Shown here in pieces: positions 52,475-57,233 of a DNA stretch of 64,000 nucleotides. Under the pieces are notes generated by a model that was not told the DNA's origin, did not search any database, and saw only the letters and a program-made list of their open reading frames with translations. Numbering within the stretch: position 1 is the first letter of the stretch; each line of letters starts with the position of its first letter. The DNA comes from Candidatus Latescibacterota bacterium (lineage in GTDB: Bacteria > Latescibacterota > UBA2968 > UBA8231). Both the position numbers and the translations under genes were made by a program. Where the stretch lies: the NCBI GenBank assembly GCA_965208105.1, contig OZ242318.1, forward strand, positions 128,001 to 192,000. Reading direction: 5' to 3'.

Positions 52475-53725
52475 ATGAACCGACTGTGGTCCTATGGATC
52501 CGGCAACCCGGGAAGCCGGGATGGCAGGTTGTTCGGTCCCCACATGGCCGAGGAGAATCCCTTCGACCCCGACGAAATCGTCGTCGCCGAGCAGTGGGCT
52601 TCTGACGTTGTGCTGATCAACCGCGAGACCGGAAAATTACGGGTGGTTTTCGGGGAGCGCGGCGTTCCCGGAGGGGGAAAGCGACTGAACCTGGCGCACT
52701 CGGCACACTTCATGCCTTCCGGACCCTACGCCGGGCACATTTTGCTTACCGAGTTCCGCGGTGAACACCGGGTAATGATAGTCGAGCGCGACAAGGGTGC
52801 CGTTCTCTGGTGCTACACCGGGTGCCGTCGTCCTCTCGAGGCGATCCACTGGGACGATGATCACATCATGGTTTCCGACGGTGATGAAATCGTGAAGATC
52901 CGCCTCCGGGACCAGCAGGTGGTCTGGAATTTCCCCGCATGGCGCGCTTTCTACCTGCAGAAACTCCCGCCGCAGCCGTACGGTGCATCCTATGGGGGCG
53001 ATCTTCTGGTCCCCTTTTTCTCGTCGGACCCCAGCGGAGTCTGGGAGATCGACACCAGCACGGGAGAAAAGGTGTGGTCGTACGGGGAGAGGAAGGGACC
53101 GGGACACGGAGACCTCTACGACATGGTTTCCCGGGCGGCCTGTGCCCTGCGCTTCGGTATCCACGAGAAGTTCGGTGGCTACACCATCATCTGCAGCGAA
53201 CGCTCGCGAATTCTCTGTGTGAACCGGGACAAGGAGCTGGTTTGGGAGTTGGGGGGAGGCAGTGGGGACCATCTCGCCCCTGGGACGCCCTACGCCCTGC
53301 TGCCAACCTACATTGCGCCGACCACGAGAGGCACGCTCCTGGTCACCGACTGGGGCTTGAACATGATCTACGAGCTCGATCCGTTCCATATTCCACCGCG
53401 CTCGGTGAAGGACGCCTACCTCTGCAGGGAGGAGGAAATCGGGGATGATTTCACCGACAGCGGTACCATCGAGTCGCGGGGTTACGGCCATGTGACCGTC
53501 CAGGTCTTCAATCGACACCGAAACACGGGGTTGAACTGGCAGGTACTGGGCTCCCACAATGCAAGAGACTGGCAAGTCGTCCACTCTCCTCCAGAGAGGC
53601 TTGGCGGCGGGGAGTCGACCTGGACCACCATTTCCGAGCCGTGGAACTTCATCAAGACCCGGGCCGGGTCCGCAGTTCGGGGTGAGTCCGCGGTAGTAGA
53701 AGTATACGCCACCATGCGCCGCTAG
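52475..53725 (+). CDS. Hypothetical beta-propeller protein (PQQ/arylsulfotransferase-like repeats)
   Basis: AAGGAGG RBS; repeated xxW motifs (GAVLWCY, QVVWNF, GEKVWSY, KELVWEL); TAG stop supplied by repeat copy C. Confidence 0.6.
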   Translation: MNRLWSYGSGNPGSRDGRLFGPHMAEENPFDPDEIVVAEQWASDVVLINRETGKLRVVFGERGVPGGGKRLNLAHSAHFMPSGPYAGHILLTEFRGEHRVMIVERDKGAVLWCYTGCRRPLEAIHWDDDHIMVSDGDEIVKIRLRDQQVVWNFPAWRAFYLQKLPPQPYGASYGGDLLVPFFSSDPSGVWEIDTSTGEKVWSYGERKGPGHGDLYDMVSRAACALRFGIHEKFGGYTIICSERSRILCVNRDKELVWELGGGSGDHLAPGTPYALLPTYIAPTTRGTLLVTDWGLNMIYELDPFHIPPRSVKDAYLCREEEIGDDFTDSGTIESRGYGHVTVQVFNRHRNTGLNWQVLGSHNARDWQVVHSPPERLGGGESTWTTISEPWNFIKTRAGSAVRGESAVVEVYATMRR

Positions 53726-53887
53726 TGTCCCGTCGCAGAGATAGGTTGACGAAATTGGGCCGCCGAGGCGCCAGGCTCACAAGGCGCCTGAGCGAGTCGT
53801 ACCAGTGGTGTACGGCGAGTGAAGGCAACGCCGTGAGCCGGGATGGATCGGCGGAAAAATGGCAACATATTTCTGCGACGGGACACT
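53722..53887. mobile_element. Fold-back element copy C (inverted relative to A/B), right CTAG interrupted by the IS110 element
   Basis: CTAGTGTCCCGTCGCAGA ... TCTGCGACGGGACACT|; the missing AG lies at 55436-55437 beyond the IS. Confidence 0.9.
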
Positions 53888-53959
53888 GATATGTATTGAC
53901 GGTTGTCAACCCCCTCCGGGGTGGTCGTTTCGGGTGTTATCTTTGCATGAGTTTGTTCG

Positions 53960-54120
53960 GGAACAGAAGGGACGCTGTAGCGACGGTTGATCCGACTGAT
54001 ATTCGCGGGTTGGTTACCGCCTGTCCTGGGTGCGTCGCGGAGCGGCCTCAATCTAGAGTCGAGGGTCAGCCTGATAGGCGCCTCATAGTGTCTTCGAGGA
54101 TTCTCCTGACCGGTCCCTTC
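53960..54120 (-). ncRNA. Predicted bridge/seek RNA in the IS right end (boundaries approximate)
   Basis: Two stem-enclosed internal loops containing GACACUA/UCUAG (target-matching) and AGGACA/AUAUCAG (donor-matching). Confidence 0.6.
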
Positions 54121-54180
54121 TGTCCCGTTTCGATTTACATGAGCAAAGGTCCTATGCCGGCTTCTGAGACGATGAGCTTA

Positions 54181-55320
54181 TCAGGCGGCGATCCGAGGCC
54201 TCCTGGCCACGAGGCGGCCGGGGCGTTTCTGCTCCCAGGCGATGGCCCAGATGAAACCCAAAAGCTCCCGCGCGATCGCGGTGCAGACTTTGTTTTTCGG
54301 CATCCCTCGCCCACTCAGCCGTCGATAGCGTCCACACAGGCGTTTCTGTGCCTTCCAGGCGATGGCCTGTATGGGGGGTGCGGTCTGTTCGGCGCGTCGT
54401 TGCAAGGCGGCCGTCTTGCGGGCGGGAAAGCGATAGCACCAGGCGGCTTCCACCAGCACGCGCCGCACGTGGGCGTTGCCCGCCTTGGTGATCGCCCCTC
54501 GCTTTTGGCGGGAGCCGCTGGAATGCTCGCTGGGGACCAGACCGACGAAGGCCATCAGTTGGCGCGGCGAGTCAAAGCGGGTGAGGTCCCCCAACTCGGC
54601 CAGGGTCGTAACCGCGGTGAGCGTGTCTACCCCGCGCAGCGCCCTCATAGCCCGCGTCTCCCCTTCCAAAGACCATCCCTCCAGCGCCTGCTGCAGGGCC
54701 TGGTCCAACCCCTGGATCCGACCTTGGGCTTCCTGTACCGCGTCCACGTATTCCTGAAAGACGATCTGCTGGGCCGGATGATCGAAGCGCTGGGTCTGCA
54801 GCCAGCGAAAGTGGGCTTGGGTCCAGCGACTGCGCCCGGAGTAGATCCGGCCGTGGCGCTGCAAGAAGCTGTTCAGCCGCTGGCGCACGCGGCGCTCGGC
54901 GTGCTTGAAGTCTTCCCGGCAGCGCTCCAGATCGCGCATCGCCTCCTGCGCTTCGTCGGGCACCCACACGGGGGTCAACTCGCCGTGTTGGAAAAGCCGC
55001 ACCAGAGACACAGCATCGCGGCGGTCGGTCTTGATGCGGTCGCCCGGCCGACGCGGGATCAGCGAGGGCGCCACCACCGTGCAGGCGTGCCCCAGGGCTG
55101 TGAGCTGACGGTAGACGCCGTAGCCGCAGGGTCCGGCCTCGTAGCAAAACCGCAACGAGGTCCCACCACGGGCCAGTTGGCCCGCCAGCTTGGACAACGC
55201 GGCGCCCGTAGACGGTATCGTTCCATACAGGTCTGGCCCTTTTCGGCCTTCACCGGCCAGGGCGACGGTGATCGAATCTTTATGTATGTCCAAGGCGACG
55301 AATTTCGTAGATTTACGCAT
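54181..55320 (-). CDS. IS110 family DEDD recombinase/transposase
   Basis: FVALDIHK (D), YEAGPCG (E), KTDRRDA (DD), GLVPSEHSSG (Ser loop), ITKAGN..RR.LVEAAW, AIAREL; GGAGGAGG RBS before ATG 55320. Confidence 0.96.
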   Translation of the reverse strand: MRKSTKFVALDIHKDSITVALAGEGRKGPDLYGTIPSTGAALSKLAGQLARGGTSLRFCYEAGPCGYGVYRQLTALGHACTVVAPSLIPRRPGDRIKTDRRDAVSLVRLFQHGELTPVWVPDEAQEAMRDLERCREDFKHAERRVRQRLNSFLQRHGRIYSGRSRWTQAHFRWLQTQRFDHPAQQIVFQEYVDAVQEAQGRIQGLDQALQQALEGWSLEGETRAMRALRGVDTLTAVTTLAELGDLTRFDSPRQLMAFVGLVPSEHSSGSRQKRGAITKAGNAHVRRVLVEAAWCYRFPARKTAALQRRAEQTAPPIQAIAWKAQKRLCGRYRRLSGRGMPKNKVCTAIARELLGFIWAIAWEQKRPGRLVARRPRIAA

Positions 55321-55580
55321 GGCCTCCTCCTTCTCGCTGGGGATAGGTCTTTGGGTGAACTCCGTTTTCCCAAAGATAACCCCCGACAACCGAGTCGGAG
55401 GAGGTCTTTCATATCTCCGTCAATACATAAGGTCTAGACGTGGCTCAGCCCGGTGAGAAGGGGCAGGGCCTGACAGGCCTCCGTACCCGCTCGGCGAGGC
55501 GGGGCTTCTCCCGTGACCACAACCTTAGTACAATACCCTGGTCGATTCGGCTCCCGGTACCCCGAACTTAATCCAAGGAG

Positions 55581-57233
55581 ATGCAACGCATGGACGCAGA
55601 ACGAGAGCGAGCGCGCTGGCGCCGCCGGCGGATCATCTACAACAACGACGGCGACGACGTGATCGAAGCCCGCCCCGAGGGCGATGAGCACGACCACGAC
55701 GTCAACGAATCTCTCATGGTGCGCTCCAGCGACGATCTGGTTCAGGATTATCTGGCCGCCCGCAGCACTCCATTGATCGGCTCGCAGGTGGACAGCAACT
55801 GGTTCGCCACCGCCATGGCCGGGCTCACCTTCTCCCACCAGACCAGGCTGGGAGGATTCTACGGCAAGGGGGTTCCCCTGGAGCTGGTGGAGAGGTACGG
55901 GCGCGACCCCCTGCAGATCCAGCTGGACTTCAGCCGCGAAAACGGCATGGAGGCGGCCTGGGCCCTGCGCATGAACGATGTCCACGACGCCTTCCCCATG
56001 GGTTCGCGCAGATATACCTACGGTCTGGCCAGGTTCAAGCGGGAAAACCCGGGTTACATGATCGGCGAGGATGGCGACTGGGAGAAATTCGCGGACGACC
56101 CGGTCAAACGGGCATGGACGCGATTGGACTTCGCCATTCCGGAGGTCCGCGACCACATCTTCGCCGTAATCGAGGAGGTGGCGGAGAACTACGACGTGGA
56201 CCTCATCGGAATGGAGTTCTTCAAGTACTGGCCCTTCTTCCGCGAGTCCATGGAGTTGGATCCCGTAACGCCCGAGCACTTGGAGATCATGAACGACCTT
56301 CTGCGCCGCATTCGCCGCATGGCGGACGGGGTCGCCGCCCGCCGCGGCCGCCCGCTGCTTTTGGCAGCCCACACACCCTTCAGCCTGGAGGATTGCGTCC
56401 ACGTCGGGGTGGACCTGGAAACCTGGCTCAAGGAAGATCTGATCGACCAGTTCTGCCCCGGAGGCAATTACGAGTCGGTCCTGCGCGATTCCTACCACGG
56501 CATCGTCGACCTGGGACACAGGTACGAGGTCCCCGTATATCCCTGCCTCTCCTGGGGGTTCTGGGACCGCTGGGTATTTCACCGGAGCGACGGCAAGTAC
56601 AGGCGGTTCGACGATTGGGTAAAGAACCTGTACGGGGGACAGCCGGAGCGCATCGGCTGTCCGGAGTACGTCGCGCTGTTCAACGGGTGGGAGGGCTCGT
56701 TCCCCGCCTGGCGCGGCGCCGCCATGAACCTGCTCAACGCCGGAGCCGATGGACTCTACCTCTTCAATCCCGCCCTCGGTGATCCGCGGGTGTGGCGGGA
56801 GATCGGCGAGGTGTCCTCCATGGCGGGGAAGGACCGCCTCTACGGCATCGATCGTTTCCCCGCCGGCGACAGCTTCAATGACGTCGCCGAAGTGTACCTG
56901 AAGCCCGGCATGCCGGTAGCCGCCAGCTTTCAGGTCGGAGAGGACGTGGGGACCAGCGGTGCAAACAGGCTGGATTTCAGCCTCCACCTGTGGAACCACG
57001 CGGCGGGCGACCGGGTGGCGGTAAAACTGAACGGGACTTCGGTCCCCGGCTTGAAGCCGGCCGAGCCCGGGAGGAACCCGGAGCGGGGCCAGTGGCTCGA
57101 AGGCGAGGTCGAAGCCCGCCAGGTGAACCGGGGCGAGAACCAGTTGGAGGTTGCCGTCGAGGAACGGGGCGGATCAGCCTCCGACACCCTGGTCATGGAC
57201 TCGGCCCAGCTCCGGGTCCGCTGCGAGCGCTGA
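55581..57233 (+). CDS. Putative glycoside hydrolase (GHL10/DUF187-like TIM barrel)
   Basis: RRRRIIYNNDG, LRMND.H, LDFAIPEVR, NYDVD, G.D.ETW....LID, GADGLYLFN. Confidence 0.6.
   Translation: MQRMDAERERARWRRRRIIYNNDGDDVIEARPEGDEHDHDVNESLMVRSSDDLVQDYLAARSTPLIGSQVDSNWFATAMAGLTFSHQTRLGGFYGKGVPLELVERYGRDPLQIQLDFSRENGMEAAWALRMNDVHDAFPMGSRRYTYGLARFKRENPGYMIGEDGDWEKFADDPVKRAWTRLDFAIPEVRDHIFAVIEEVAENYDVDLIGMEFFKYWPFFRESMELDPVTPEHLEIMNDLLRRIRRMADGVAARRGRPLLLAAHTPFSLEDCVHVGVDLETWLKEDLIDQFCPGGNYESVLRDSYHGIVDLGHRYEVPVYPCLSWGFWDRWVFHRSDGKYRRFDDWVKNLYGGQPERIGCPEYVALFNGWEGSFPAWRGAAMNLLNAGADGLYLFNPALGDPRVWREIGEVSSMAGKDRLYGIDRFPAGDSFNDVAEVYLKPGMPVAASFQVGEDVGTSGANRLDFSLHLWNHAAGDRVAVKLNGTSVPGLKPAEPGRNPERGQWLEGEVEARQVNRGENQLEVAVEERGGSASDTLVMDSAQLRVRCER

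Follow-up and report, generated by a model that had tools for sequence, protein, structure and literature searches.

Does the non-coding tail of this insertion sequence encode a bridge RNA (seekRNA) whose loops read both the insertion target and the joined ends of the element? The question arises from a sequence-only reading of a 64,000-nt stretch of a Candidatus Latescibacterota genome (the window, to which coordinates refer unless own-genome positions are indicated), in which two stem-loops downstream of a transposase gene were proposed to carry short guide strings, first for the target and then for the donor junction. We consider it very likely that the element is an IS110-family member of the IS1111 type with a bridge RNA of ~170 nt in its 3' non-coding region, the loops of which read the target and the joined ends. 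The evidence lies in the boundaries and target of the element, a conserved RNA fold, and four loop strands that covary with the flanks or ends of their own elements.

Genomic copies delimit the element

A BLAST search of the region against its own 4.85-Mb genome returned 12 copies of a 1.55-kb unit. Lined up in transposase orientation, all copies share the left junction ..CT-AG|ACCTT-ATGTATTGACGG and the right junction CCGTCAATACAT-ATC|AG-TG, the latter continuing as -TGTCCC in the full consensus. These copies define the same junctions from which the sequence-only reading had derived its target and donor strings. AG stands on both sides of the element in 12/12 copies, and the core is duplicated at each insertion with no long target duplication. 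The features of the element are collected in Table 1.

The perfect 12-bp repeat, set back by 5 nt at the left end and by 3 nt at the right, is within the 7–17 bp range of the IS1111 group. The distribution of non-coding DNA, with 293 nt downstream of the transposase gene and 113 nt upstream, is likewise the IS1111-group arrangement. The RNA region is identical in 7/12 genome copies and the transposase gene is full-length and unbroken in 10, which indicates that the element was recently active. Among 40 related genomes, matches at E ≤ 1e-30 were found in 4 besides the window's own, mostly with broken genes.

Two remnants were also observed in the window's own genome. A solo right-end fragment at C1:3931346-3931510 comprises the second half of the RNA and the right end at 91–93% identity, without a transposase gene and with the flank AGTGcctg. 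Beside the copy at 3999605-4001321, a relic of ~65–108 nt from the target loop of a related element occupies C1:4001325-4001432; its 5' guide is CUGCACUA rather than AGACACUA, the same guide as in metagenome locus L126.

Table 1. Features of the insertion sequence, its predicted RNA and its target (window coordinates unless indicated).
Feature	Position	Strand	Remark
Insertion sequence, LE to RE	53888..55433	-	1546 bp; exact span common to 12 genome copies
Core dinucleotide AG (CT on + strand)	55435-55434 and 53887-53886	-	One on each side of the insertion sequence
Left 5-nt end extension ACCTT	55433-55429	-	Precedes ATGTATTGACGG
Left subterminal inverted repeat ATGTATTGACGG	55417..55428	-	Perfect 12-bp inverted repeat with 53891-53902
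Transposase/recombinase gene, 379 aa	54181..55320	-	Pfam domains; ATG at 55320 behind GAAGGAGGAGG
Bridge/seek RNA core (predicted), 170 nt	53958..54127	-	MFE fold; structure kept in 50 homologues
RNA closing stem (predicted), 14 bp	54126-54113 with 53973-53959	-	Encloses putative target-binding, then donor-binding stem-loop
Target loop 5' strand GACACUA	54086..54092	-	LTG in IS621 terms; invariant in 12/12 copies
Target loop 3' strand UCUAG	54053-54057	-	RTG in IS621 terms; same sense as left flank and core
Variant 3' target strand CCAUAGAC for CUCUAGAU	Own-genome RNAs 2703104-2703274, 2924725-2924895		Both copies at CTAG
Donor loop 5' strand AGGACA	54022..54027	-	LDG in IS621 terms
Donor loop 3' strand AUAUCAG	53996-54002	-	RDG in IS621 terms; equals last 5 nt of RE plus core
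Right subterminal inverted repeat CCGTCAATACAT	53891..53902	-	Partner of the left 12-mer
Right 3-nt end extension ATC	53890-53888	-	After CCGTCAATACAT
Target: one copy of ~166-bp repeat, terminal inverted repeats (CT)AGTGTCCCGTCGCAGA	53722..53887	.	Element at repeat end

The transposase probably belongs to a deep clade of the IS1111 kind

The transposase matches PF01548 (E 5.6e-13) and PF02371 (E 1.7e-22), the N-terminal DEDD (RuvC-like) and C-terminal Transposase_20 domains that together characterise the IS110 family. Residues D11, E61, D99 and D102 and the motif GLVPSEHSSG (S268-G269) have aligned counterparts in the ISCro4 and IS621 chains, with residue roles taken from PMC11208158, and the catalytic columns and the SG serine vary little or not at all among 25 homologues. 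The element is an IS110-family insertion sequence with IS1111-type architecture.

A protein search returned relatives in the thousands. Identity to IS5075/IS4321 is ~26–27% over residues 65-296 (61% of the length) in the protein match, and the match to the IS621 protein is weak (E 2.2e-5, C-terminal domain). At 379 aa the protein is also longer than the 330–350 aa quoted for IS1111-family transposases in PMC11187229. These low identities, together with the longer protein, would place the element in a deep clade of the IS1111 kind.

The element inserts at the end of a small repeat

In 10/12 copies the element has inserted at the CTAG|TGTCCC end of a ~166-bp repeat, the rightward sequence being TGTCCCGTCGCAGA; the sequence left of CTAG is different in every one of the 12. 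The repeat gives 127 BLAST hits in the own genome, 86 of them near full-length. Since uninterrupted repeat ends read CTAGTGTCCC, insertion occurs at CTAG|TGTC with duplication of AG. Genome-wide, CTAGTGTC sites number 87 free (53 followed by CCGT) and 12 occupied. The two remaining insertions are at the partial sites CTAGTGgt and CTAGTGTt, which match only TAGTG(T); target choice is therefore not strictly specific.

On the + strand these sequences become GACA-CT-AG for the site and AAGGT-CT-GATAT for the donor, which share the CT core of IS621. Comparison of the sequences supports GACACTAG, i.e. GACA-CT-AG, as the predicted target. This much of the originally predicted target holds; its ninth base, an A on the + strand and, in transposase orientation, the T that precedes CTAG, is weak, being present in 4/12 insertions, and the corresponding RNA column agrees with the flank in 23/45 discovery and 28/50 replication loci (sets described below).

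The repeat itself has 15-bp terminal inverted repeats with CTAG at both boundaries and resembles a miniature inverted-repeat element. Its inner ~98-bp part matches a second, more diverged copy set at ~86% identity, and no Rfam match covers the copy at 53722-53887.

The downstream region is predicted to fold into two stem-loops that carry the guide strings

The minimum free energy fold of the 293-nt non-coding region consists of two stem-loops with large internal loops inside a 14-bp closing stem. GACACUA faces UCUAG in the first loop and AGGACA faces AUAUCAG in the second. The fold reproduces both stem-loops of the sequence-only reading, with the closing segments CCUCGA (54099-54094)/UUGAGG (54051-54046) and GACG/CGUC and the inner hairpins GAGG..CCUC and GCGG/CCGC, and the four strings are present at the positions of Table 1.

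GACACUA pairs with TAG-TGTC on the transposase-sense strand: one base to the left of the core, the AG core itself and 4 nt of the right flank. AGGACA pairs with the core G and with left-end bases 2–4 (C, C, T of ACCTT), and has A opposite A at the first core base and at left-end base 1, exactly the 4/6 match that had been counted for it. Next to UCUAG on its 3' side, the A at 54052 agrees with base 1 of the element rather than with that of the target, which makes it a candidate handshake base; the U at 53995, which follows AUAUCAG, agrees with base 1 of the target right flank and not with the donor base.

The sequence-only reading had conceded that such matches are short and had let their order and structural context carry the argument. 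Of 20,000 dinucleotide-shuffled versions of the non-coding region, 530 contained GACACTA and 421 ATATCAG, and none had the three guide strings together in the observed order, which puts the ordered matches above chance. The fold energy is not exceptional (z = -1.46 for the 293-nt region, z = +0.09 for a 151-nt piece). A scan of 53600-55700 against Rfam 15 at E ≤ 1 gave no match, so either a family of this type is absent from that collection or none of its families fitted. Across 53700-55600, no sigma-70-like site was found in the element, and none of five terminator-like hairpins is positioned to bound the RNA.

Compensatory changes maintain the fold among homologues

Homologous loci were collected in two sets, a discovery set of 80 reference-genome loci (51–65% protein identity) and a replication set of 80 metagenome loci (57–82%). 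In 55/80 genome and 59/80 metagenome loci, a script found an ATG-initiated pair of subterminal repeats as far from the gene as in the window. This common geometry allowed the ends, core and flanks of each homologue to be read as in the window. Left junctions are nearly always ..nTAG|AC.., and right junctions ..CAT-ATC|AG.. or ..CAT-GAG|AG...

The genome loci left out were the 25/80 lacking the repeat pair, four dubious cases (L082, L111, L113, L115) and two with truncated RNA (L057, L116); the 21/80 metagenome loci lacking the pair are mostly at contig ends. The RNAs of 49 genome loci and the window were aligned with MAFFT, and the window sequence served to select the guide columns. These columns stayed fixed, with no new choice, when the metagenome loci were aligned to them. 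Cut flanks or gapped guide columns removed 5/50 from the target test and 1/50 from the donor test; in the replication test the same causes removed 7/59 and redundancy a further 2, leaving n = 50.

Across the 50 sequences, 90.7% of cells are paired under a structure of 33 pairs drawn by hand, against 77.2% in shuffles and 38–49% in slid controls. Both sides have changed in 24/33 pairs, and 0/500 shuffles reach the observed score. An independent RNAalifold prediction contains the closing stem and the outer stems as well.

The target loop follows the flanks of each element

In the discovery set, the 5' target strand is Watson–Crick complementary to its own right flank in 42/45 loci at the first base (R1), 40/45 at R2 and at R3, and 39/45 at R4, declining to 29/45 at R5 and 12/45 at R6. 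Both core positions are paired in 42/45 loci, and the base left of the core in 40/45. The 3' target strand is identical to its own left flank in 43/45 loci at L-1, 39/45 at L-2 and 23/45 at L-3. The zero counts at R7 and L-4 are alignment gap columns and carry no meaning.

Summed over columns, the 5' strand reaches 202/270 (permutation maximum 109) and the 3' strand 105/135 (maximum 85), each with 0/10,000 permutations as high; the homologues are kin to each other, so permutation values here and below overstate independence, and most guide columns show all four bases. In the 50 non-redundant metagenome loci the corresponding totals are 211/250 (maximum 124) and 126/150 (maximum 99), again with 0/10,000 in both cases. 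Invariance of the loops among homologues, named beforehand as the finding that would count against guide function, is not what the alignment contains: the loops vary and follow the flanks of each element in both sets.

Individual loci illustrate the agreement. L043 has the guide GGCUGCUA and the flank AG|CAGCC, L048 and L049 have the guide ACAAG and the flank acaAG, and L062 and L076 have GUUA where the right core is AA. The flanks of L047, which has two candidate right ends, and of L060 are not fitted by their guides.

A side observation concerns the core itself. Five loci (L062, L076, L077, L078 and L087) have AA at the right junction and AG at the left, with UU of the 5' target strand opposite AA; the difference between the junctions, together with the UU in the guide, suggests that target and donor cores differ in these loci. 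Within the window's own genome, 2/12 copies carry CAUAG in place of UCUAG, although their own flank is CTAG. The genome holds 40 ATAGTGTC sites, which the CAUAG variant would fit better than it fits CTAGTGTC.

The donor loop follows the ends of each element

The 3' donor strand is identical to its own right end at RE-1 and RE-2 in 49/49 loci, where three states occur (TC, AG, and CC in L047), and at RE-4 and RE-5 in 49/49, where the columns are invariant. Its total is 139/147 (permutation maximum 121; 0/10,000; 49 loci). The 5' donor strand, compared with its own left end, agrees at LE2 in 49/49 loci, including a G:C swap in L056, at LE3 in 11/11 C:G cases, and at LE4 in 36/49, for a total of 130/196 (maximum 118; 0/10,000; 49 loci).

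Opposite the first core position, the 5' donor strand has a non-pairing A in 92/109 loci. The closest relatives, L125 and L126 (77–78% protein identity), share the left end ACCTT and an identical CCCAGGACAGG string, and farther relatives with ACCTT (L128, L130 and L132) have a fully complementary AGGUC. The incomplete match of AGGACA to the donor is genuine and common to the closest relatives.

Single bases following a guide strand that match the opposite partner have been named handshake guides (PMC11208158). The A after the 3' target strand is invariant and equals left-end base 1 in 48/49 discovery and 57/57 replication loci. For the 3' donor strand, the next base is the same as the first base of the right flank in 28/49 discovery loci (0/5000 permutations) and in 7/57 replication loci (97/5000 permutations); in the latter set it is nearly always A and equals the cognate left-end base in 54/57. 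The second base after the 3' donor strand gave no signal in either set. Handshake pairing is plausible for the window's element only.

Could only the first stem-loop be functional? Under such a reading, a seekRNA of ~80–100 nt would be processed from a longer transcript, the second loop would have a minor guide role or none, and the donor ends would be recognised mainly by protein through the subterminal inverted repeats. Siddiquee et al. 2024 (PMC11187229) describe, for three IS1111 members, a predominant RNA of 82–96 nt containing both target matches, alongside a longer form; the 12-bp repeats offer an alternative means of end recognition, and the incomplete pairing of the 5' donor strand, with its A opposite the first core base, fits a dispensable second loop. 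We nevertheless regard this reading as unlikely, since no part of the RNA is better conserved than the second loop, both strands of which covary with their own ends: the LE3 C:G pairs hold throughout, the single G at LE2 is accompanied by C, the C at RE-2 of L047 is matched by C, and the TC and AG clades differ accordingly. That the non-coding region instead acts as DNA, with sites for an end-recognition protein, or as a structured 3' UTR or terminator, the matches being coincidental or by-products of ancestry, is highly improbable: such a reading could draw on the unexceptional fold energy, on the lack of a promoter in the element and on donor-side strings so nearly invariant in the family that part of the signal is clade structure, but the compensatory changes argue for a folded single strand, and target columns with all four bases follow their own flank in two independent sets, a pattern that DNA-site and terminator models do not predict.

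Two further features of the left end and the joined ends were observed in relatives. In loci such as L056, L067, L069 and L166, or L086, L090 and L121, the motifs TCGCGGGTT, GCGTGGATT and TCGAGGGTT lie ~25–50 nt inside the left inverted repeat and form an exact 8–11-nt reverse complement of either the 3' strand of the donor-loop hairpin (~17 loci) or the 5' stem of the target loop (~6 loci). Such motifs could reflect pairing between the 5' UTR and the bridge RNA or constitute a second inverted repeat. The left end of the window's element has a chance-level 7-mer only. Were the ends of many relatives (right TTGACA, left ACATA-AT) to be joined, TTGACA and CATAAT would stand 17 nt apart, which is the known hybrid promoter of this family. 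For the window's element we do not claim a joined-end promoter, the spacing being 19 nt and the -10 poor by eye.

Proposed mechanism and relation to known systems

By analogy with IS621, ISEc11, ISPa11 and ISKpn4, the RNA would be made, probably from the 3' portion of the transposase mRNA, and would bind the recombinase and dictate its specificity; the same analogy suggests that the recombinase would be programmable. In the proposed pathway, the first loop would read the target, the 5' strand GACACUA pairing with TAGTGTC on the transposase-sense strand and the 3' strand (U)CUAG with CTAG(A) on the other strand, so that both pairings overlap on the AG/CT core. The second loop would read the joined ends of the excised element, with AUAUCAG opposite the right end ...ATATC plus core, and the 5' strand AGGACA pairing imperfectly with the core G and the left-end CCT. 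A tetramer of the DEDD/Ser recombinase would then exchange strands at the core, giving insertion at CTAG|TGTC, mostly at the end of the ~166-bp repeat.

In IS621, according to Durrant et al. 2024 (PMC11208160), LTG/RTG and LDG/RDG pair opposite strands and overlap on the CT core, which lies within all four pairings. The element here resembles IS621 in having two internal loops, target first and donor second (PMC11208160; Hiraizumi et al. 2024, PMC11208158), each of which would read both DNA strands with overlap on a CT core, and in having a DEDD and Ser recombinase. On the 3' side of the RTG and RDG equivalents there are single bases that match the non-cognate partner, as handshake guides do. 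It differs in the position of its RNA, which is at the right end and downstream of the gene, whereas that of IS621 is at the left end and upstream; in having 12-bp subterminal inverted repeats; in carrying the CT core on the strand antisense to the transposase; in the long closing stem that joins both modules; and in the A that usually stands opposite the first donor core base.

The position of the RNA is that of the IS1111 group, which is recognised by subterminal inverted repeats and, according to PMC11208160, has its RNA in the right end. For three IS1111 members, PMC11187229 describes an RNA of the 3' non-coding region that co-purifies with the transposase and in which the top-strand match lies 5' of the bottom-strand match. 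The order seen here, target loop before donor loop in right-end non-coding DNA, agrees with the layout in these two sources, as the sequence-only reading had held. Like ISEc11, ISPa11 and ISKpn4, as they are described there, the element has a 3' non-coding region downstream of tnp, subterminal inverted repeats, a GL-P----SG motif, and a top-strand match 5' of a bottom-strand match with overlap in the target. An internal promoter is not evident in either case; PMC11187229 mentions none visible for the seekRNA except one formed at the joined ends. As with ISPa11, whose target is given there as REP, the target is a repeated genomic element. In contrast to the seekRNA systems, this element targets one end of a ~166-bp repeat and not REP, attC or a Tn21 inverted repeat.

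Insertion at a fixed position in a terminal inverted repeat recalls another pair of elements. IS4321 and IS5075, both of the IS1111 type, are said to target one fixed position within a terminal inverted repeat that belongs to another mobile element, as Partridge and Hall reportedly described in 2003. The target here differs in being the terminal repeat of a small non-coding repeat rather than of a Tn21-family transposon, and the proteins are ~26% identical.

Discussion

Bridge RNAs are predicted in 93% of IS1111 elements in PMC11208160, which makes a bridge RNA in this element expected biology. The predicted guide RNA described here is a well-supported, ordinary example of the mechanism described in 2024.

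Two departures invite a more speculative reading, namely that the donor loop purposely leaves the first core base unread and, separately, that CAUAG is a natural retargeting toward ATAGTGTC; taken jointly, we hold these to be doubtful. On its own, the variant in two copies could represent natural retargeting toward the 40 ATAGTGTC sites. As for the donor loop, the sub-clade of the window's element would leave the first left-end base unread too, and the single bases after both 3' guides match the opposite partner. If the donor-loop reading were true, a built-in weakening of donor pairing would tune strand exchange or the bias between insertion and excision, unlike in IS621.

The element adds to this family a cleanly delimited, recently active example for which the natural target, the donor junction and four guide strands are known. 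Its clade is deep, IS1111-like and poorly characterised, with at most ~27% identity to IS5075/IS4321. The alignment of ~100 loci yields pairing rules for the clade, with 8 nt in the 5' target strand, 4–5 nt in the 3' target strand and a donor core base that is systematically unpaired. Such rules could guide tests of these recombinases as programmable tools.
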